A stretch of 64,000 bases of DNA, taken from assembly GCA_035526025.1 (NCBI GenBank), contig DATLDE010000011.1, positions 121,056 through 185,055 on the forward strand, given 5' to 3'. The notes below the pieces were generated by a model. The model had not been told where the DNA came from and searched no databases. It worked only from the letters and a program-made list of their open reading frames with translations. The translations under genes and the position numbers were made by a program. This document shows positions 7,590-38,364 of this stretch, piece after piece (the first letter of the stretch is position 1; every line of letters starts with the position of its first letter). The DNA comes from Candidatus Limnocylindrales bacterium. Its GTDB lineage: Bacteria; Patescibacteriota; Microgenomatia; Levybacterales; UBA12049.

Positions 7590-10142
7590 ATGAACATAGG
7601 TAAATTACAACCAACAAATATCTCAGAGGAGATGAAGAAATCGTATTTGAATTATGCGATGTCTGTTATCGTGGCTCGTGCACTTCCTGACGTCCGGGAT
7701 GGCCTCAAACCAGTTCATAGAAGAATTCTGTACGCTATGAATGAGATGGGTCTTGGCCCGACTGGCAAATTCCTCAAATCCGCACGTATAGTTGGAGAGA
7801 CCATGGGAAAATACCACCCTCATGGAAACATGGCAATTTACGATTCACTCGTTCGTCTGGCACAGGATTTTTCAATGCGATATCCACTTATCCTAGGTCA
7901 GGGTAACTTCGGTTCAGTTGATGGTGATCCGCCAGCTGCTGATCGTTATACAGAAGCCAAACTCCAACACATCACAATGGAGATGCTTCATGATTTGGAT
8001 AAAGAAACAGTTGATTTCGGCCCAAATTATGATGGGTCATTCCAAGAACCTTTATATCTTCCGGCCAAACTTCCTAACTTACTACTTATGGGTGCTGAAG
8101 GTATTGCTGTTGGTATGGCAACCAAAATTCCACCACACAATCTTGGAGAAGTGATAGACGCAATTACATATCTAATTGATAAATCCAAAATTGAAATTCT
8201 AAAAGAAAACGAACCAAAACCTCTTGATCCTAAAGACCCAGACTCAAAAGCATCACCTATACAAAGCTCTGCTGTCTCATTGCACACAGAAGTAACTATT
8301 GATGAACTACTACAATTCATTAAAGGCCCTGATTTTCCAACAGCAGGCTCAATTTATGATCAGACAGAAATCAAAAACGCATATATCACAGGGCGGGGGA
8401 AGATAATTATCCGGGGCAAAGCAGAAATTGAAGAAATAGGACAGGGAAAATCAGCAATTATCATAACAGAGCTTCCGTACCAGGTAAATAAAGCAATACT
8501 GATAACCCGCATCGCTGATCTTGCTAAAGAGAAAAAGATTGAAGGAATATCTGATCTAAGAGACGAATCAGATAGACGCGGAATGAGAATTTATGTCGAG
8601 CTGAAAAGAGACGCATTCCCCAAGAAAGTTTTAAATAATCTCTTTAAACACACATCCATGCAGACTAGTTTCCCCGTCAACATGGTCGCACTAGTCAATG
8701 GAACTCCTCAAATTCTTAACCTTAAAGTAATTCTTGAAGAGTATATAAAACATCGCTATATCGTTGTCAGAAAAAGATCAGAATTTGAGTTGAGACAAGC
8801 AAAAGCAAGGCTTCATATACTCGAGGGGCTCAAAATAGCAGTTGATAATATCGATGCTGTGATTGCAACAATCAGAGGCTCCAAAGACCAGGAAGACGCC
8901 AAACAAAACCTTATGGGAAAATTCAAACTATCAGAAATCCAGTCAGTTGCTATTTTGGATCTTCAACTGCGAAGACTTGCAGCTCTTGAGAGACAAAAGA
9001 TTGAAGACGAACTCATGATGGTCAAAGAGACAATTGCGTACCTTGAAGATCTGCTAGCGCACAGTGAGAAAATACTTGATGTGATCAAAGGTGAAATTCT
9101 GAAATTAAGAGAAAAATATGCTGATGCAAGACGCACAAAAGTGTATAAGGGTAAAGTCGGCGAGTTCTCAGAAGAAGATTTGATAGCAAATGAACCAACT
9201 GTTATCACCATCACAAACACAGGCTACATCAAACGCCAATCACTAACCTCATTCCACACCCAGCATAGGGGAGGAAAGGGAATAACAGGAATGAATGTAA
9301 AAGACGAGGATGGAATTGCACACATCCGGTATGCTCAGACACATGATAATATAATTTTCTTCACAAATAAAGGAAAAGGATATGCTCTCCGTGCTTATGA
9401 AATTGCAGAAAGCTCAAGAACAAGTAAGGGATCAGCCGTTGTAAATCTACTTAATATCGAACAGGGTGAAAAAGTGGAGTCATTTGTGGTAATGAATAAA
9501 ACAGTTAAAGCAGGCTACGTCTTCCTCACTACAAGAAACGGTACAGTTAAAAAGAGCAAGCTCTCAGAATTTGAGAACATCAGACGAAATGGCATGATCT
9601 CAATCAAGTTAGATAAGGGGGATGAATTAGTCTGGAGCAATATCAGTATTGGCACAAATGAGATATTGCTTGTTACCAAACAAGGTAAAGCAATTAAATT
9701 CTCAGAAACTGCAGTCAGACCAATGGGACGTGCTACAACCGGTGTACGAGGTATCAAGATTGACTCGACTGATCAAGTTATCGGAATGGCAGTTATAACA
9801 AAAGATGACGATGCAAATGTACTGGTAATTATGGAAAATGGTCTTGGGAAAAAGAGTCCGCTTAAACAGTTCCCGCTTCAGGGGAGAGGTGGACAAGGCG
9901 TAAAAGTGGCCAAAGTTACACCAAAAACAGGACAGGTTGTCATAGCACAAGTTATACCACCGGGATGTGAAGAAGTGATAATCACATCAAGAAAAGGACA
10001 GATTGTGAAACTCCTTACAGCGCAAGTTCCGAAATTATCACGTGACACTCAAGGAGTTATCCTGATGCGCTTCTCAGACGCAAATGACAAGGTAGCCTCA
10101 GCGACCTGCATTGAGAAAACCATAGAAAAAACCGCTGCTTAA
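7590..10142 (+). CDS. gyrA: DNA gyrase subunit A
   Basis: [24 protein letters not shown], the active-site Tyr region and C-terminal beta-pinwheel repeats. There is a ~30-aa lineage-specific insertion between HNLGEV and GPDFPTAG. Confidence 0.95.
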
Positions 10143-19209: not shown

Positions 19210-20286
19210 ATGCTAAAACTACCAGGCCTTATCGACCCACATGTTCACCTGAGAACACCGGGTCAATCTCACAAAGAAGATTTTTATACGGGAACTTCTG
19301 CTGCGCTTGCAGGAGGTTATACCACAATAATCGATATGCCAAATAATCAAATACCCATAACAACACTTGCAGCTTTTGAAGAAAAAAAAGAAATTGCGAA
19401 AAAAGAAATAGTTTGTGATGTAGGATTCCACTTTGGGTCACTAGGTGAGAAATTTGAAGAATTTGCAAATGTTTACAAAAATGTTTTTGGTTTGAAAATA
19501 TATCTCAATCAAACCACAGGGAATTATTTTGTTGATGAAAAAGTATTTGAAAAGATATGCAAAGGATGGCCTTCTACCATTACTGATTGTAAGGCTGATC
19601 AATTTCAAAAACCTATACTAGTTCATGCAGAGGAAGATGTCCTAGAGTCCATCATTCAAATTGCACATGATACAGAACAAAAACTACATGTATGCCATGT
19701 AAGCTCGGAAAAGGAATTAAGAATTATTATGAAAGCCAAAGAGAAAAGATTTAAAATTACCTGCGGCGTAACACCACATCATTTATTTTTAACTGTTGAA
19801 GATGAAAAAAAACTTGGGAGTTTTGGAAAAATGAAACCTTCTTTAAAATCAAAAATTGATCAGGATTTCCTATGGAATAATTTATCATATATCGACATAG
19901 TCGAATCAGATCATGCCCCACACACTCTAGAAGAAAAGCAGTTAAGTAATGTACCGTTTGGGGTCCCGGGACTCGAGACAACGTTACCTTTACTCCTTAC
20001 TGCTGTGCATGATAAAAAATTAACAATTAATGATATAAGAAGACTCTGCCATGATGACGCTGCAGAGATTTTCAATATCAAAACTGATCCGCAAACCTTT
20101 ATAGAGATTGATGAAAATGAAGAATATGTTATAAAAAATGAAAATCTTTTTACCAAATGCAAATGGTCGCCTTTCCACGGTTGGAAAGTAAAAGGAAAAG
20201 TGAAAAGTGTTACAATTCGAGGAACAAAAGTTTTTGAAGATGGTAAAATAATCATAAATCCTGGATTTGGAAAAATTCTTTCATAA
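19210..20286 (+). CDS. pyrC: Dihydroorotase
   Basis: Metal ligands DPHVHLR and the DHAPH motif. The gene sits in the pyr cluster. Confidence 0.85.
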   Translation: MLKLPGLIDPHVHLRTPGQSHKEDFYTGTSAALAGGYTTIIDMPNNQIPITTLAAFEEKKEIAKKEIVCDVGFHFGSLGEKFEEFANVYKNVFGLKIYLNQTTGNYFVDEKVFEKICKGWPSTITDCKADQFQKPILVHAEEDVLESIIQIAHDTEQKLHVCHVSSEKELRIIMKAKEKRFKITCGVTPHHLFLTVEDEKKLGSFGKMKPSLKSKIDQDFLWNNLSYIDIVESDHAPHTLEEKQLSNVPFGVPGLETTLPLLLTAVHDKKLTINDIRRLCHDDAAEIFNIKTDPQTFIEIDENEEYVIKNENLFTKCKWSPFHGWKVKGKVKSVTIRGTKVFEDGKIIINPGFGKILS

Positions 20287-22508: not shown

Positions 22509-22580
22509 TCACTTGTCAAAAAGTTAATGCCTAAATGATCTCAAAATTCTTTTTGAAGAGGTGGACAAAAGAAGTAAAGG

Positions 22581-22865
22581 CTAATTATTTGCCAAACCGA
22601 GGTGCTTCTCTATTCTCTCAACTTTCTTATGTAAAACAACATTGTCACGGTCAAAGTAATCAATCGTAGTCTTTAGATCTTTTCTAATTTTTGTATCGTT
22701 TGTCTTAAGAATTTTTATATCCCTTAGGAGAGATCCCACGTCAGCTTGCATTGAGACCATACCTTTTTGCAACAATTTAACATCTTGTTTTATGGGCTCC
22801 ACCTCAACTTGCACCACTTCTTTTACAACATCTCTTATTTGAGTCAGATCATTTTTTGTTAGCAT
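22581..22865 (-). CDS. Small coiled-coil hypothetical protein (about 95 aa)
   Basis: The start was chosen at the internal ATG (MLTKNDLTQIRD…). The ORF is divergent from pyrF, and the upstream part of the track ORF overlaps the pyrF 5' end. Confidence 0.35.
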   Translation of the reverse strand: MLTKNDLTQIRDVVKEVVQVEVEPIKQDVKLLQKGMVSMQADVGSLLRDIKILKTNDTKIRKDLKTTIDYFDRDNVVLHKKVERIEKHLGLANN

Positions 22866-22923
22866 ATTTCCAATATACACCCTTTTCTTTTTGCTTTCAA
22901 GAGTTATATAATCATTACAATAA

Positions 22924-25258: not shown

Positions 25259-25710
25259 CCAATAACCCAATAAACAAATCAACCCAGAATAATAATGAGA
25301 TTATTTTCTTTTTGAATTCAGGATTATGGTGCTGACAATCATTACAATCTCTTTTCCCTCCTGCATTAAATCCTTCATCCTAAGCTTAAAGGTGGGATTC
25401 GTATCACTGATTATTCTTAACCAATAGCTTGTTTCTTTACCTTCTTTTCTAACTATTGCATACTTTGCAATAAAATCTTTTCTACTATCCGTTCCGTCTG
25501 CTTCTTGATCGTTTGCTCCCATTGATGTTGCTGACTTTGTGATCTGTGTTATCAAAATAATATTTTCTGGAGTTCTTGGAAGTTTTTTTACTAAATTTAA
25601 AACCCGAATAACAAATTGATAAATTCTTTCATGAATGTCTTTTATTTTTTGATTATTCTCCATTTGTTATTGATTGGGTTATTTGTTTATTTGCATATTG
25701 GGTTATTTTA
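25259..25710. repeat. Imperfect inverted repeats (about 27 bp) flanking the four-helix-bundle gene
   Basis: Left arm 25259-25285 (CCAATAACCCAATAAACAAATCAACCC). Right arm 25671-25710 (GATTGGGTTATTTGTTTATTtgcatatTGGGTTATT) is its reverse complement with a 7-nt insertion. Confidence 0.6.
25301..25663 (-). CDS. Four-helix-bundle protein (23S rRNA intervening-sequence protein family)
   Basis: Signature SMGANDQEADG…SRKDFIAKYAIVRKEGKETSYWL. Confidence 0.8.
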   Translation of the reverse strand: MENNQKIKDIHERIYQFVIRVLNLVKKLPRTPENIILITQITKSATSMGANDQEADGTDSRKDFIAKYAIVRKEGKETSYWLRIISDTNPTFKLRMKDLMQEGKEIVMIVSTIILNSKRK

Positions 25711-26643
25711 CTTATTCCCACTATGAAAGGCTTTGTGGACGTCCCTAAGCTGTTTATTTGTGATATGAGTATATACCTGAGTTGTCGCGATATTTTTGTG
25801 TCCGAGCATCTCCTGGACAGATCTTATATCTGCTCCGTTCATAAGTAAATCTGTTGCAAATGAATGACGCAAGGTATGAACAGTTGCATCCACTGGCAAT
25901 CTTGCTTGTTTTGTATACTTTTTTACTATTCTTTCAATCGATCGCACTGTCAATCTCATCTTTTCTCCATTATCAATTTCTGAAACAGCCTTTGCATATC
26001 TGATAAATAATGGTTTATAACTATCTGTCCTCGCATTTTGATAATTTGCTATCCATTCAGCGGCCCGATCTGAAATAAACACAATTCTTCCTTTACCACC
26101 TTTTCCAATTACACCAAATTCCCGCCGTTCAAGGTTGATTTTATCCTGATTCAGACTTACAAGCTCAGACACACGAAGACCACTGGAAAATAACAATTCC
26201 AGAATTGCACGATCCCTAATCCCTGCTTCCTTAGAAGTATCCGGCATGGCGACCAATCTCTCTACCTGATCTCGCTCTAAAAATTTTAGACTTCTACTCT
26301 CTGTCTTGGGAAGATCTATTTTTGAGGGTTCCAGAGTTGGGACATCATTTTTTATAAGAAATCTTAGAAACGACCTGAGCGCAATTACATAATAGTTTTG
26401 GGTGACCTTTTTTCTTGTTTGGCCTTTTTCATTAATGTGATTGGCCAAATGAACTCTATATTTTCTGATAAGTGATAAATCAAGATCCTTAATCGACTTC
26501 CCCGGCAGGGTAGAGGAGTGCCATTCTTTAAATACGTCTAAGTAATGCCTATAATCACGTATGGTGAGCTTGGAGCAATTTTTTTCAATTTCCATGTACT
26601 CCAAAAATTGATCGATTAAAGAAACTAGGCTGTCGTTCTGCAT
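25708..26643 (-). CDS. xerC: Tyrosine site-specific recombinase, XerC/XerD family
   Basis: C-terminal catalytic box HTLRHSFATDLLMNGADIRSVQEMLGHKNIATTQVYTH, the R…K…H…R…Y residue pattern and an N-terminal SAM-like core-binding domain. Confidence 0.85.
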   Translation of the reverse strand: MQNDSLVSLIDQFLEYMEIEKNCSKLTIRDYRHYLDVFKEWHSSTLPGKSIKDLDLSLIRKYRVHLANHINEKGQTRKKVTQNYYVIALRSFLRFLIKNDVPTLEPSKIDLPKTESRSLKFLERDQVERLVAMPDTSKEAGIRDRAILELLFSSGLRVSELVSLNQDKINLERREFGVIGKGGKGRIVFISDRAAEWIANYQNARTDSYKPLFIRYAKAVSEIDNGEKMRLTVRSIERIVKKYTKQARLPVDATVHTLRHSFATDLLMNGADIRSVQEMLGHKNIATTQVYTHITNKQLRDVHKAFHSGNK

Positions 26644-26699: not shown

Positions 26700-28115
26700 A
26701 TGAAATATAGCGAACAATATAAAGACTGTCTGGAATATATTGATGAATATTGGGATAAGATTATTTTCAAACCTTCAAGAATTCGACTGGAATATAAGTA
26801 TATAAATATTCCAACACTTCTTCCTGAAAAAAATCCAAACCCACATATCATCAACATTCCTTATTCTTATATTGTCCCAAATACAGGATTTTTTAAAAGA
26901 ATATATTACTGGGACAGCTATTTTATGTTTAAAGGATTAATCGGTACCAAACGTCAATCTGTAACCCGAAAAATGGTTGATAATTTTTTATATCTTTATG
27001 GAAAGTATCAAATAATACCAAATTTCAACGCCCCGGCATCAATTAACAGATCTCAACCGCCATTTCTCTCATCTATGATACTCGATAGCTATCTAAGCCC
27101 TCTTCATGCCCTAAAAAATAATAAATATCATACTAGTATCAGTTCAAGCGTCTATAAATTGAGAAATATGGGCTGGTTAAAACGCGCGAGTCATATTGCC
27201 AAGCAGGAATATGAAACAGTTTGGATTGATAAAGACAATCTCTATAATCACCACGTAGATGGTTATGAATTGTCACGCTATGGAGACCGGGATATTGGGT
27301 ATGCACATTCTTCAGAATTGGAATCCGGTTGGGACATGACATCCCGATTTTATAATAAATGTGACCAATTTCTACCAATTGATCTCAATTCCTATCTATT
27401 CAAATATGAAAAAGACTTTGAATACATTGCAAAGCTTTCTAATAATTCAACTGATGAAAAATACTGGAGAGAAAAATCAGAACGTCGAAAAAAGGAAATT
27501 AACAAATATATGTGGGATGATCATGAAAAATTCTTCTTTGATTATGGATATGTCTTCAAATTGGTCAGTCACTTCTTTTCACTCGCGTCCTACACTGTCC
27601 TGTGGGCTGGACTCGCAACTGAATCCCAAGCCAAACATATGGTTGAAAAACTTTCAAAATTTGAAACTCCATATGGTCTGACTATTTCGGATGCAGACTC
27701 AATTGCAAAACCCATTAATCTTGCAAAAATTCAAAGACGTTATCACCCGGCAATTAATGAGATTATAAAACCTAAGCAATGGGACTATCCGAACATCTGG
27801 TCACCTCTTGAATATCTTACAGTCATCGGGCTTCTCAAGTACGGATATGTAGATGATGCAAAAAGAATTATGGAAAAATCTGTAAGCGCTCATGCAAGGC
27901 TTTTTAAGAAACACAAAACATTCTTTGAAAAGATCAACGGCAAAACCGGTGAACCAGGCGTCGGCGCTCTGTACGGCGATCAGGAAGGTTTTGGCTGGAC
28001 AAACGCTGTGTTTTATCGCTATATTCAGATTCTTGATGCTATAGACTCCAAGCAGTCAATTTATTTATCCCCAAAGTCAAAAAAACCCCCATACACTTTA
28101 TCCATACTTCACTAG
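26700..28115 (+). CDS. treA: Trehalase (glycoside hydrolase family 37)
   Basis: GH37 signature 1 (FFKRIYYWDSYF), RSQPPF, and signature 2 (QWDYPNIWSP). Confidence 0.8.
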   Translation: MKYSEQYKDCLEYIDEYWDKIIFKPSRIRLEYKYINIPTLLPEKNPNPHIINIPYSYIVPNTGFFKRIYYWDSYFMFKGLIGTKRQSVTRKMVDNFLYLYGKYQIIPNFNAPASINRSQPPFLSSMILDSYLSPLHALKNNKYHTSISSSVYKLRNMGWLKRASHIAKQEYETVWIDKDNLYNHHVDGYELSRYGDRDIGYAHSSELESGWDMTSRFYNKCDQFLPIDLNSYLFKYEKDFEYIAKLSNNSTDEKYWREKSERRKKEINKYMWDDHEKFFFDYGYVFKLVSHFFSLASYTVLWAGLATESQAKHMVEKLSKFETPYGLTISDADSIAKPINLAKIQRRYHPAINEIIKPKQWDYPNIWSPLEYLTVIGLLKYGYVDDAKRIMEKSVSAHARLFKKHKTFFEKINGKTGEPGVGALYGDQEGFGWTNAVFYRYIQILDAIDSKQSIYLSPKSKKPPYTLSILH

Positions 28116-29075
28116 TGAAAAGTCCTAGATATGCTCTCCTCCGGACAAAATTAACCTAAGGGGGAGTCATATACTGATTTTAGCCTCGATTTAGCCTCAA
28201 ATTACAGTCCCATAGTGGGGGAGTGAGCGAAAAAAAGCACATTGAACCAAATAGAGAATAATAGAGATTGAATAAGGGATATTAGAATTACCAATATACA
28301 TATAAATGTTAAATAAATGCTAATTCGTAAAGTACAAAACCAGCCCTCCCCCCGGTTCTGTGCCTACGTTATGTCGTAAAAGTATTATTGTACGACATAA
28401 TAGCATATTGCTTCCCCAGGCTTAATGCCAATAAAATTGGTTTATAATCCATAGCAGACATATTTGATAAGAGTAGACTATCCATTTATCTAGATCCTTA
28501 ATGCTTAACACATGTTAATTAATTGCTATAAATTACTAATTTTATTAATAATTTGTAGCTTAGAGACCACTTCCCTAAGATAGAAGAGATTTGCTCTTGT
28601 ACTGACTAAGAAAAGAATATTAAACAGGTGAACATTCTCTGAAGCTTTCAGTTGCACTGATTAGCAAAGTTAAGAATGCATAGATATATATAATAGTCTG
28701 GTTAAACATTGATAATCGTTTAGACTGTTGAATCAATCTAATTTACACATTTTAGCCTCAAAATAATTGAAAAAGAGATGTTCGTATTTTTTTTATCACT
28801 TCGCGTGGAGTATGATAGTCTAGTATACTACTCTGAAGTAAACTAGAAGAAAATATTAATCTAATTAATATACAATTGTAGACAAGCAACTACATTGCTT
28901 TCTATTATACACCCTCTGTGTTACAAGTTAATAAATACATGTATCAAACTATATCATTTAGCCTGTGAAAAGTCTCTGTGAAAAGTTATCCACATACTAT
29001 ATCATAGTATATCACTTTTATTATAGGACTTATAGTTTTTACCCTCTCTCCTCTTCCCCATTCTCTTCTCAGTAA

Positions 29076-29927
29076 TTATTTTCCCCACGGTGTAAAAAGA
29101 ATTAATACAAAAAAAACAAGACAACCTACCCAGACATATTCCCACATAATTCCTTTAAAAAGCCGTCTCTCGAACCATATATGAGATAGGCCAACTATGG
29201 CATAAAAAAAACCTGTGAGAAAAAGTGCAATAAAGGTTGGACTGCTGGGCCAAAACCATAAAAGCGAGGCTGCTTCAATCAGACATGCTGTTAGTATAAA
29301 TACCCAAGTGAAAATTGAGCGGGATGGCTTTATAAGCGTATAGGTCCACAAAGAGTGAAATATTAAAGCTGAACTGTATATTATCATCAGTATTATCACT
29401 ACAAAAATATTTAAATGGAGAGTAAAAACAATATTTGTGAGAAAAAAGAATGATAGCAGCGTTGCTACAAAAGACACAATGCGTGCACCCGAAAGAAGAG
29501 TTATTGTTCTAATTGAGGAAATTGAGAGAATATTCTGACTTAAGAATACGGAGTACAGACCAAATGCAAAAATTGCTGCCAGAACTAATCTGAACGCAAA
29601 TGCAGTAGGTGTTAAAAAGTAAAACATTCCAAAACTCAGGCTATAAAAAAACGGAAGTATAAATGCCTCAAGCGTGCGATTTTCTTTAAGATCAGGATGA
29701 ATTGCCCAATACAAAATTATAGTTGTCAGTATAGCGATTATAACTGGGATAAAAATTCCTGATTTTCCAAACTGAAACTCTGCAAAAAATAAACCGAGTG
29801 AAAGAAGAACCGTCCCGATAACAAATTTATGTCTCTTTTCAATTGAAAACTTAAAGCTCTTTCTCCCCTTTTTTACATTTGAGGCTTGTTTAATACTTGA
29901 ACTTTGTTGGGACGAATTACTGATCAT
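29076..29927 (-). CDS. Integral membrane protein (7-8 TM), hypothetical
   Basis: 283 aa with a basic N-terminus, polytopic and hydrophobic. Its start overlaps the yebC stop. Confidence 0.5.
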   Translation of the reverse strand: MISNSSQQSSSIKQASNVKKGRKSFKFSIEKRHKFVIGTVLLSLGLFFAEFQFGKSGIFIPVIIAILTTIILYWAIHPDLKENRTLEAFILPFFYSLSFGMFYFLTPTAFAFRLVLAAIFAFGLYSVFLSQNILSISSIRTITLLSGARIVSFVATLLSFFFLTNIVFTLHLNIFVVIILMIIYSSALIFHSLWTYTLIKPSRSIFTWVFILTACLIEAASLLWFWPSSPTFIALFLTGFFYAIVGLSHIWFERRLFKGIMWEYVWVGCLVFFVLILFTPWGK

Positions 29928-30678
29928 TTAATATACTTTCCATTATATTGTCATCTATATCAAAATTTACATATACCTTATGAACATCATCCAATTCTTC
30001 TAATAGATCAATAAATTTAATCGCTTTTTGCGCTTGCTCTTTGTCCGTAAGAGTATTTATGCTTACAGGTTTCCAAATCAGCCTCGTTTCTCGAATTTTA
30101 ATTGCTTTTTCCAGTAAAGCGTTTCGGGCTTTTGCAAGGTCATCCGATTTGGTATATATAATCGCATCAGTATCTGAATCCTCTATATCTTCTGCATAAC
30201 AATCTGCTGCAATAAGAAATATGTCATCAAGTGACTGCCCGTTTTTTGAAACAGTAATTACGCCTGTTTTTTCAAACTGATACATAACGCTTCCTGCAAC
30301 CCCCATACTGCCCCCATTTTTTTCAAAAGCATTTTTTACTTCTGCAACAGTTCGTTGTTTTTTATCGGTTAGTGTTTCAACAATCACGCTAAATCCCCCT
30401 GGCCCAAATCCCTCATAAAAAATTTCCTCAATGTCCCCTGCTTGCTTACCACTCGCCCGCTCTATAGCCCTAGTTATATTTTCCTTAGGCATGTTTGCAG
30501 CCCGCGCTTCATCTACTGCTAATCGAAGACGAAAGTTACTATTGGGATCAGCCACACCACCACCTTCTCTTACAGCAGTAGTAATACTATAAGATAGTTT
30601 AGTGAATACCTGGCCACGTTTTTGATCTTTTGTTCCTTTTTGTCTTTTAATGGTTGACCACTTTGAATGCCCTGACAT
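29917..30678 (-). CDS. yebC: YebC/PmpR-family transcriptional regulator
   Basis: N-terminus MSGHSKWSTIKRQKG and the typical three-domain YebC pattern. Confidence 0.9.
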   Translation of the reverse strand: MSGHSKWSTIKRQKGTKDQKRGQVFTKLSYSITTAVREGGGVADPNSNFRLRLAVDEARAANMPKENITRAIERASGKQAGDIEEIFYEGFGPGGFSVIVETLTDKKQRTVAEVKNAFEKNGGSMGVAGSVMYQFEKTGVITVSKNGQSLDDIFLIAADCYAEDIEDSDTDAIIYTKSDDLAKARNALLEKAIKIRETRLIWKPVSINTLTDKEQAQKAIKFIDLLEELDDVHKVYVNFDIDDNIMESILNDQ

Positions 30679-38273: not shown

Positions 38274-38356
38274 GCCGAGATGGCGGAATGGTATACGCGG
38301 TAGTCTCAAAAACTACTAGTCGCAAGGCTATGGGGGTTCGACTCCCCCTCTCGGCA
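38274..38356 (+). tRNA. tRNA-Leu (anticodon CAA), type II with long variable arm
   Basis: Hand-folded. Acceptor GCCGAGA/TCTCGGC; anticodon stem GTAGT/ACTAC with loop CTCAAAA; variable arm AGTC-GCAA-GGCT; T-arm GGGGG-TTCGACT-CCCCC. CCA is not encoded. Confidence 0.85.
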
Positions 38357-38364
38357 CAATAAAT

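Follow-up and report, generated by a model that had tools for sequence, protein, structure and literature searches.

The 64,000-nucleotide stretch of contig DATLDE010000011.1 considered here (the window), from a genome labelled Candidatus Limnocylindrales bacterium that GTDB places in the Levybacterales, raises the question of what occupies the 960 bp between a trehalase gene and the convergent gene for a DUF5656 membrane protein. This spacer (28116-29075) has no open reading frame (ORF) of 60 or more codons, the longest on either strand in the ORF list being 43 amino acids (aa), and its G+C content (GC) is 0.28 to 0.34, versus about 0.35 to 0.40 nearby. A first-pass annotation had drawn attention to this AT-rich, ORF-free gap between convergent genes, a description that stands, and had proposed as candidates a large structured noncoding RNA (ncRNA), a decayed mobile element or att site, or a pseudogenized region. 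Comparison with related genomes points to a different answer: the spacer is best described as a conserved cis-acting DNA element and not a gene. It contains a 28-bp imperfect palindrome (pal28) that would likely be the partner of the tyrosine recombinase encoded by a nearby xer gene. The genes concerned and the palindrome are located as follows.

25708-26643, minus strand: xer, encoding a 311-aa XerC/XerD/XerA-like tyrosine recombinase (Pfam Phage_integrase and SAM-like N domain)
26700-28115, plus strand: trehalase gene, GH37-type; its stop borders the spacer, and it is convergent with the membrane-protein gene
28371-28398: pal28, a 28-bp imperfect palindrome, ATGTCGTAAAA-GTATTA-TTGTACGACAT, with an 11-6-11 layout; candidate Xer (dif-like) core site
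29076-29927, minus strand: DUF5656 membrane-protein gene (PF18900 in precomputed matches); its 3' end borders the element in all loci
29917-30678, minus strand: yebC, the next gene after the DUF5656 gene

Conservation of the spacer and its gene order

The species-representative genome collection contains 69 relatives of the trehalase, the closest of which are 75 to 45% identical and all come from metagenome-assembled genomes (MAGs) of Levybacteria, Microgenomates, or Patescibacteria. The order xer (minus), trehalase (plus), spacer, membrane gene (minus), and yebC (minus) is kept in 36 of these genomes, and the spacer measures at least 773 nt in all 36 syntenic loci. By blastn, four collinear patches of the spacer align at 80 to 97% identity, versus 65 to 73% for the flanking coding DNA. 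In all, about 190 related contigs, with Xer proteins 50 to 95% identical to that of the window, have the spacer conserved in patches, better than its flanking genes. Between the patches, not even the closest relative can be aligned; at 75% identity of the flanking proteins, 60% of the spacer is still unalignable, and its length ranges from 300 to 1500 nt across loci. The first-pass annotation had allowed that the spacer might prove unconserved in relatives; the opposite was seen, and the conservation is striking. The pattern indicates that the element is under strong purifying selection rather than decayed.

Many of the metagenome contigs are more distant, with Xer about 50 to 60% and membrane protein about 30 to 35% identical to those of the window and with GC from 34% to 52%. 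Nearly all of these have xer (minus) on one side of pal28 and, on the other, a TTATCCACA box, ACTATATCA, two copies of GTGAAAA, CCTATAAT, the membrane gene, and yebC, and most are without trehalase. Where no gene is inserted, the distance from the xer start to pal28 is at least 344 nt, with a median of about 1 kb (1050 nt). In every locus that reaches that far, xer lies 0.35 to 5.5 kb from the 28-mer; in the window the distance is 1.7 kb, with the trehalase gene between. The xer gene is 95% identical to its copy in locus L001, versus 75% for the trehalase. In a rearranged Levybacteria locus (L042), the element still lies between the DUF5656 gene and xer and has moved with the membrane gene. 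These comparisons suggest that the ancestral unit consists of xer, pal28 with its accompanying motifs, and DUF5656-yebC and that the trehalase gene is a lineage-specific insertion. The seemingly unexplained spacer between convergent genes would thus exist because the trehalase gene was inserted between xer and the element.

Four Levybacteria loci (L034, L036, L038, and L040) have one or two extra genes between the trehalase gene and pal28, encoding proteins of about 200 to 260 aa on the plus strand and about 325 to 337 aa on the minus strand. These proteins are conserved from one such locus to another, and insertions seem to recur on the left side of pal28. In GC-rich relatives (L165, 8339-9900, with 52% GC, and L207), the noncoding stretch between xer and the membrane gene is about 1.5 kb and falls to 38 to 47% GC; about 900 nt of noncoding DNA also lies on the xer side of pal28, where TTCGGGTTTT recurs. 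Many MAGs with a Levybacteria-type locus (L003, L006, L009, L011, L001, and others) are labelled "uncultured Gammaproteobacteria," "Candidatus Saccharimonadales," or "Candidatus Sulfotelmatobacter" and are probably mislabelled. The otherwise packed window has two further intergenic gaps of about 400 nt each (2204-2598 and 22509-22923).

An AT-rich, ORF-free stretch beside a gene of the integrase family might be expected if a mobile element had decayed, if a pseudogene had left a remnant, or if the gap were due to chance. At the protein level, tblastx gave equal matches in all frames and only where nucleotides are conserved, the small ORFs of the spacer had no Pfam match, and the ORFs of orthologous spacers are not conserved. 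These comparisons exclude conserved coding in the spacer and lend no support to the proposal of a pseudogenized region. A blastn search of the spacer against plasmid and phage collections returned no match, the pal28 core had 0 matches in 2.9 million viral contigs, and no terminal inverted repeats or target duplications were found in the spacer. Decay or chance is refuted by the conservation across the roughly 190 contigs, and we give it a probability close to nil. What survives of the mobile element or att site in the first-pass annotation is its second half: the element has the geometry of a tyrosine recombinase core site and lies near xer.

The 28-bp site and the neighboring recombinase

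pal28 coincides with a feature previously described as a perfect hairpin. The 10-bp stem is present (TTATGTCGTA at 28369-28378, a 12-nt loop, and TACGACATAA at 28391-28400), at coordinates 1 to 3 nt away from those first given, and is part of a 13+6+13 inverted repeat (stem region 28369-28400). The site was found at ≤4 mismatches in 36 of 36 syntenic genome loci and, in a scan with a degenerate palindrome core, in at least 120 metagenome contigs. Across 149 sites (60 distinct 28-mers) the consensus is AYGTCGYAAAA-GTWWTA-TTGTRCGACRT, and conservation stops sharply at both ends. There are two central variants, GTATTA and GTTATA. The asymmetry of the arms at positions 9/20 is invariant across the 149 sites, and the palindromic part is formed by the outer parts of the arms. 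Only 8 of the 28 bp are G or C (0.29, versus about 0.35 to 0.40 for the window), and no locus has the site inside a gene. There is one copy in the 64 kb and one per locus, and each contig of 0.3 to 1.2 Mb is represented once among the at least 120 matches listed.

Paired positions in the two arms vary independently. For pair 7/22, the 60 distinct 28-mers give counts (T-A, 12; T-G, 17; C-G, 22; C-A, 9) that match independence, and pair 2/27 behaves likewise. Since the arms do not covary, pal28 is a DNA site and not an RNA hairpin.

Some contigs end at the site: L041 ends there (position 7717), L240 starts 1 nt inside it, and L245 ends 4 nt after it. With L185, L209, L216, L227, and L043, eight contigs end within 50 nt of pal28, versus about three expected by a rough calculation, and three of the eight within 4 nt. 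These ends could be an assembler artefact at the palindrome or could mark alternative junctions (recombination or an integrated element).

The Xer protein scores about equally against the NCBIfam models for XerD, XerC, and XerA, in all cases below the equivalog cutoffs, and reaches 138 bits against the XerS model, for which the cutoff is 267. Its best relatives of solved structure are XerD (1a0p; 3e-38) and XerA (4a8e), with which the catalytic R-K-H-R-H-Y positions align. A homologue search returned only close Levybacteria proteins. Chain 14 of PDB entry 9i5v (401 residues), named "Ribosome-associated translation inhibitor RaiA," matches Xer over nearly its full length (E = 2.4e-30); either the name is wrong, as it appears, or the chain is a fusion. 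Directly downstream of xer is a stand-alone gene (25301-25663, minus strand) of the PF05635 "23S rRNA intervening sequence protein" family.

dif sites in proteobacteria and archaea are recognized as noncoding, palindromic 11-6-11 sequences of low GC that are present in single copy and kept in relatives (PMC2731167, PMC2958812). pal28 has this geometry, is noncoding, is low in GC, is conserved, and is single-copy as far as the data reach; like the classical dif of XerC/XerD, it also has an asymmetric center. Only about 18 of its 28 positions agree with the published consensus of classical dif. In two respects it differs from that site: the inner parts of the arms are palindromic in classical dif and the outer parts in pal28 (PMC2731167), and the flanks of proteobacterial dif are variable (PMC2731167), whereas those of the element are conserved.

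A recombinase gene beside dif is described as a hallmark of single-recombinase Xer systems (PMC5357621, PMC2731167); in Arcobacter, the distance from site to recombinase is 66 bp (PMC2731167). At its distances of 344 nt or more, pal28 is near xer but not directly beside it. The element resembles XerS/difSL and XerH/difH in having a unique, AT-rich, imperfect palindrome near the recombinase gene and in the A-runs that end its arms, as in the difH and difSL arms AGTTATGAAAA and TTTCCGAAAA, which end in AAAA (PMC5357621). However, XerS and XerH are families of about 355 aa, whereas the recombinase here is 311 aa and XerC/D/XerA-like, and the central region of difSL is 11 bp, whereas that of pal28 is 6 bp. 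There are likenesses to archaeal XerA/dif as well. In archaea, dif is a strongly conserved 28-mer whose flanks are conserved too (PMC2958812), and the XerA score of the Xer protein falls only slightly short of its XerD score. On the other hand, the DNA-binding motif of archaeal XerA is XKX, whereas here it is VRS, of the XerC-type XRX form, and the host is bacterial. The dif site of Thermococcales is not beside xerA (PMC2958812).

Taken together, the anatomy of the site, its conservation, its linkage to xer, and the intact catalytic set of the encoded protein lead us to read the spacer, with about even confidence, as the cis-acting part of a Xer/dif-like module that also has accessory binding sites. 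The product of the neighboring xer gene would likely be the protein that binds and recombines pal28. Two Xer protomers would occupy the two arms of pal28, and the direction of the site would be set by the asymmetry of the arms and the central GTWWTA. Recombination between sister copies would then resolve chromosome dimers, under the control of a flanking nucleoprotein complex and not of position at the terminus. The flanks, which extend about 200 bp to the left and 300 to 700 bp to the right of the core, may serve as accessory or regulatory sites by analogy with those of cer/psi or with the flanks of archaeal dif.

Motifs flanking the site

Besides pal28, the spacer contains the following features, most of which have counterparts in relatives.

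28127-28165, plus strand: C-rich/G-rich stem-loop, CTCTCCTCC ... GGGGGAG, read in the sequence just after the trehalase stop
28179-28198 (28179-28187 and 28190-28198), plus strand: tandem TTTAGCCTC, two copies; relatives have a TTTAGCYTCAATTAGCCTCAAAA pair about 187 nt left of the 28-mer
28209-28223, plus strand: CCYATAGTRGGGGA(G) motif, at -145 nt from pal28
28342-28353, plus strand: C-rich block AGCCCTCCCCCC, about 20 to 30 nt left of the 28-mer; CCACTTCTCCC in relatives
28411-28417, plus strand: CTTCCCC block, about 12 nt right of the 28-mer; AATCAsTTyyCnCTTCCC in relatives
28719-28741: 24-bp palindrome TTTAGAyTGwT-AA-ATCAryCTAAA, conserved in Levybacteria-type loci
28751-28763, plus strand: TTTAGCCTCAAAA, the third copy of the TTTAGCCTC motif; inverted in L004
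28781-28794, plus strand: TTCGTATTTTTTT(T) motif, fixed at about 57 nt after the 24-bp palindrome
28948-29028, plus strand: motif cluster, whose members are given in the next six lines
28948, plus strand: ACTATATCA
28957, plus strand: TTTAGCCTG
28964 and 28977, plus strand: TGTGAAAAGT, two copies
28986-28994, plus strand: perfect DnaA box TTATCCACA, the sole perfect copy in the 64-kb window
28996-29014, plus strand: ACTATATCA/AGTATATCA
29020-29028, plus strand: ATTATAGGA, which reads TCCTATAAT on the minus strand
29042-29059, plus strand: polypyrimidine block CCCTCTCTCCTCTTCCCC at the right edge; CTCTCCCCT in relatives

Some of these had been seen before as dispersed repeats. The four copies of TTTAGCCT(C/G), or TTTAGCCTS, were counted correctly, with the first two misplaced by 10 nt (the copies are at 28179, 28190, 28751, and 28957); five copies occur in the 64 kb, 1.14 are expected per window, and 0 of 100 shuffles reach five. 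The three copies of GTGAAAAGT in the region of the spacer (28115, 28965, and 28978) were also found, with one further copy at 20200 and an expectation of 0.85 per window, as was the tandem CTGTGAAAAGT repeat (28963-28973 and 28976-28986). A 7-bp palindrome, ATACTAT-atc-ATAGTAT, is present (28994-29010) but specific to this window: relatives have in its place a direct 10-nt repeat, ACTATATCA(T/A)ACTATATCA, which marks the palindrome as an apparent accident of this genome. The perfect DnaA box, the 24-bp palindrome at 28719-28741, and TTCGTATTTTTTT at 28781-28794 were absent from the first-pass annotation.

The conserved patches correspond to groups of these motifs: patch A to pal28 with the C-rich block before it and CTTCCC after it; patch B to the 24-bp palindrome, TTTAGCCTCAAAA, and TTCGTATTTTTTT; and patch C to TGTGAAAAGT twice, AGTTATCCACA, two or three copies of ACTATATCA, and ATTATAGGA. 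On the left, CCYATAGTRGGGGA(G) was found in 35 to 40 of 157 loci, at a median of -145 nt from the 28-mer (interquartile range, -148 to -145) and never on the opposite strand, and the C-rich block is conserved in ungapped register (36 and 41 loci). TTCGTATTTTTTT has at most one mismatch in most Levybacteria-type loci. TTCGTATT is present in 74 of 154 loci, once on the opposite strand; distant lineages have TTCGGGTTTT. Over 122 to 154 loci, GTGAAAA occurs in exactly two copies in 69% of regions, on the plus strand only, and ACTATATCA is present in 81% of loci. The strand of CCTATAAT varies by lineage, and it is sometimes a palindrome, CCTATAATTATAGG. With that exception, the strand and copy number of the right-hand motifs are constant, whereas their order is shuffled between lineages. 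Constancy of this kind with shuffled order suggests an array of protein-binding sites and not a folded RNA.

A large structured ncRNA, or several small ones, had been the leading idea for the spacer, and a long, ORF-free, conserved region in a streamlined genome invites it; most of the motifs are strand-specific, and the distance between CCYATAGTRGGGGA and pal28 is fixed. Single-sequence folding of the plus strand gives z = -3.2. However, the minus strand folds about equally (z = -2.6), and in RNAalifold on 39 orthologous segments of 220 nt nothing emerged but the palindrome and one stem of 3 bp (covariance term, -0.45 kcal/mol). Because the arms vary independently, a large share of sequences has a C-A mismatch in midstem on either strand, and in both palindromes half-compensated or mismatched states fit the plus strand in some species and the minus strand in others. 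The Y and R positions of CCYATAGTRGGGGA also vary independently and thus would not form an RNA stem. No credible Rfam match was obtained at gathering thresholds for the window and 10 relatives or at E ≤ 10 for the spacer, and ARAGORN found no tRNA or transfer-messenger RNA (tmRNA) in the spacer, in agreement with the earlier reading of the sequence on tRNA and tmRNA. The unalignable 60% of the spacer, its range of lengths, and the permuted motif order are also at odds with an ncRNA, which we consider highly improbable.

A pairing of the G-rich block (28216) with the C-rich block (28347) was considered and rejected: there is no covariation, and the C-block of L019 and L021 has changed while the G-block has not. 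A weak match to a group II intron domain 5 (RF04356; 28800-28840, plus strand; 19 bits; E = 0.29) falls in an unconserved stretch and is most likely due to chance. The only Rfam or ARAGORN match in the 64-kb window is a tRNA-Leu(CAA) at 38274-38357 (plus strand). The stem-loop at 28127-28165 pairs in the minimum free energy fold, and its C-run and G-run partners also occur in close relatives; it is probably the trehalase terminator, outside the ancestral module. A scan of the spacer for intrinsic terminators found none.

The motifs might alternatively make up an elaborate transcriptional control region, with promoters or operators for xer, for an antisense transcript into DUF5656, or for both. 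The palindromes, including pal28, would then be operators for dimeric regulators, and CCTATAAT, which contains TATAAT, would provide -10 boxes. The palindromes do behave as dimer-binding DNA. CCTATAAT has a perfect -10 hexamer, which several lineages follow 3 to 4 nt later with GTGAAAA at a plausible start site, and a scan returned 10 promoter-like sites versus 5.4 ± 2.3 expected. Furthermore, yebC, DUF5656, the element, and xer are all on the minus strand in distant lineages, where the element is the upstream region of xer. In the window and most Levybacteria, however, the trehalase gene and sometimes more genes separate the element from xer, and the motifs are still conserved. CCTATAAT flips orientation between lineages, so there is no single conserved transcript, and its spacing from TTATCCACA varies from about 7 to 23 nt, which leaves no fixed -35/-10 pair. 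The 28 (near-)invariant bp with an asymmetric center also exceed what is usual for operators. We therefore regard transcriptional control as quite unlikely to explain the element.

For the Xer/dif-like reading, a parallel to such flanks is offered by cer/psi, which are plasmid multimer-resolution sites. There, accessory sequences on one side of the core are bound by PepA with ArgR or ArcA and act as a topological filter that works without FtsK. The element is similar in that a Xer core lies within a few hundred bp of conserved DNA with at least one motif fixed at -145 bp. It differs in being chromosomal and vertically inherited and in the flexible order and spacing of the right-hand motifs.

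The DnaA box and the direction of replication

The main rival to the Xer/dif-like reading is a DnaA-linked role of the right-hand cluster in the control of replication, either as a titrating or reactivating locus like datA or DARS or as an origin-like site, with the Xer site merely adjacent. In the origin-like version, GTGAAAA and ACTATATCA would be iterons and TTTTATTATAGG an AT-rich unwinding stretch. The only perfect TTATCCACA in the 64 kb sits in the spacer, and a TTATCCACA-like box occurs in 89% of 122 orthologous regions, always on the plus strand and perfect in 71%. Exactly one box at ≤1 mismatch is present in 96 of the 122 regions, and there are never two perfect boxes; the density is 1.49 per kb in these regions versus 0.19 in the flanks. 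Next to the box lies an inverted TGTGAAAAG, 7 of whose 9 positions agree with TTATnCACA read in reverse complement; another copy is found 13 nt upstream. The adjoining pair recalls boxes I and II of DARS, which are oppositely oriented and a few bp apart at a locus of three or more DnaA boxes (PMC6868365). As at datA, DARS1/2, and oriC, the locus is noncoding and chromosomal and combines a consensus DnaA box and an inverted box-like 9-mer with other protein-binding sites. Fixed copy number and strand of repeats with flexible order and spacing is also a feature of origins, and the drop of the region to 38 to 47% GC in the 52%-GC relative fits the same picture.

In contrast to oriC and datA/DARS, which have clusters of boxes, there is a single box per region, and a scan based on motifs turned up no dnaA-like ORF, either in the window or in about 260 other loci. 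None of the genomes tested has a skew switch at the element, and genes converge on it rather than diverge. The (NAN)x3 DnaA-trio rule (PMC8287927) is matched minimally, by hand, in AT-rich DNA, which is the level of chance. Weak DnaA boxes are not conserved as strictly as the full TGTGAAAAGT is. On balance, replication control centered on the DnaA box is unlikely, although the single, strictly conserved box is the part of the element that the Xer/dif-like reading explains least.

A 17-mer that includes the A-rich 5' extension of the box, GTGAAAAGTTATCCACA, has exact copies in 75 IMG/VR contigs (L070-L144) from about 19 unrelated phage families, with GC of 33 to 63%, often beside further TTATCCACA boxes (e.g., L080, L099, and L072). 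The extended box may be a recurrent composite motif. These viral contigs were rejected as instances of the element; they have none of its other motifs, their number is about two to three times chance by a rough estimate, and they represent DnaA-box contexts.

Several results also weigh against the Xer/dif-like reading, the first of which concern position. Proteobacterial dif is located at the GC-skew switch, at a median distance of 7 kb (PMC2731167), and difH is 16 to 35 kb from the skew peak on record (PMC2731167). The GC skew at third codon positions (GC3 skew) of 67 ORFs, read on the plus strand, was fitted by regression with two terms, the strand of the gene and its position left or right of the spacer. 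Over the whole window, the offset independent of strand is -0.136 ± 0.014 and the gene-strand term is +0.077 ± 0.014, whereas the spacer-side term is 0.001 ± 0.016. To the left and right of the spacer, the GC3 skew is -0.059 and -0.055 for plus-strand genes and -0.202 and -0.218 for minus-strand genes, and no split between 4 and 58 kb gives |t| > 1.3. The offset is likewise negative in 33 of 35 related genome loci (mean side term, +0.025) and in 14 of 14 more distant loci (side term, 0.005); over the 49 relatives, GC3 skew gives no sign that replication reverses direction at the element. The whole window thus lies in one replichore, with the G-rich minus strand presumably leading, and the element is neither a classical bidirectional origin nor a terminus. 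There is no terminus signal from 28 kb to the left to 35 kb to the right of the element, so the terminus is at least 28 kb away, which weakens the case for a dif-like site without excluding it and sets the element apart from classical dif and from XerS/difSL and XerH/difH, as do its long conserved flanks with a DnaA box in the case of the latter two. Second, conserved motifs occur on both sides of the core, unlike at cer/psi, and at least seven distinct conserved motifs would demand much accessory protein of a roughly 1-Mb genome. Finally, we know of no role for a perfect DnaA box at Xer sites.

A terminus-like skew flip near 24 to 28 kb in the plain plot was discarded, being purely a gene-strand effect according to the regression. 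Genes at 5 to 28 kb are on the plus strand (21 of 28 left genes) and those at 29 to 45 kb mostly on the minus strand, and the skew flips also at 46 kb and 54 kb, together with the gene strand. Pooled distant loci have the same left/right asymmetry of gene strand, with 40 plus and 24 minus genes to the left and 19 plus and 78 minus genes to the right. The GC3 skew stays the same across the spacer, which places the 23-kb pyrimidine/carbamoyl-phosphate block left of the spacer on the apparently lagging strand.

If the Xer/dif-like reading is kept in the face of these points, pal28 may be a site of chromosomal dimer resolution that lies away from the terminus and depends on accessory sequences rather than on FtsK, a version that is possible but that we hold to be somewhat doubtful. 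Archaeal XerA/dif appears to be independent of FtsK (PMC5357621). The orientation of the element relative to the skew is constant in every lineage tested. One model joins this fixed orientation with the absence of a skew switch, the DnaA box and iteron-like repeats, and the dif-like site and xer: a combined hub in which a DnaA-dependent origin lies beside the Xer site and replication is effectively unidirectional, so that origin and terminus would coincide. We consider such a hub very unlikely.

No description of the element was found in full-text literature on CPR (candidate phyla radiation)/Patescibacteria oriC, DnaA box, dif, Xer, or DUF5656, and it is apparently undescribed. Its nearest known counterparts are Xer/dif modules, from which its position, its conserved flanks, the DnaA box, and the single XerC/D-like neighbor set it apart. 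To our knowledge, almost nothing is known of chromosome maintenance in the CPR/Patescibacteria, which account for a large share of bacterial diversity, most of it uncultured. Defined here is a deeply conserved cis element whose candidate recombination site is delimited to 28 bp, together with a grammar of surrounding motifs. If the Xer reading is true, the element would provide a testable dif for this lineage, one that apparently breaks the rule of dif at the terminus. It would also supply a substrate for assaying recombination in vitro and perhaps a place where genetic tools could be landed in these organisms. If the DnaA box holds the key, it would represent replication control outside oriC in a minimal genome. 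Under either reading, the element is a landmark of synteny and assembly for Microgenomates-type MAGs.

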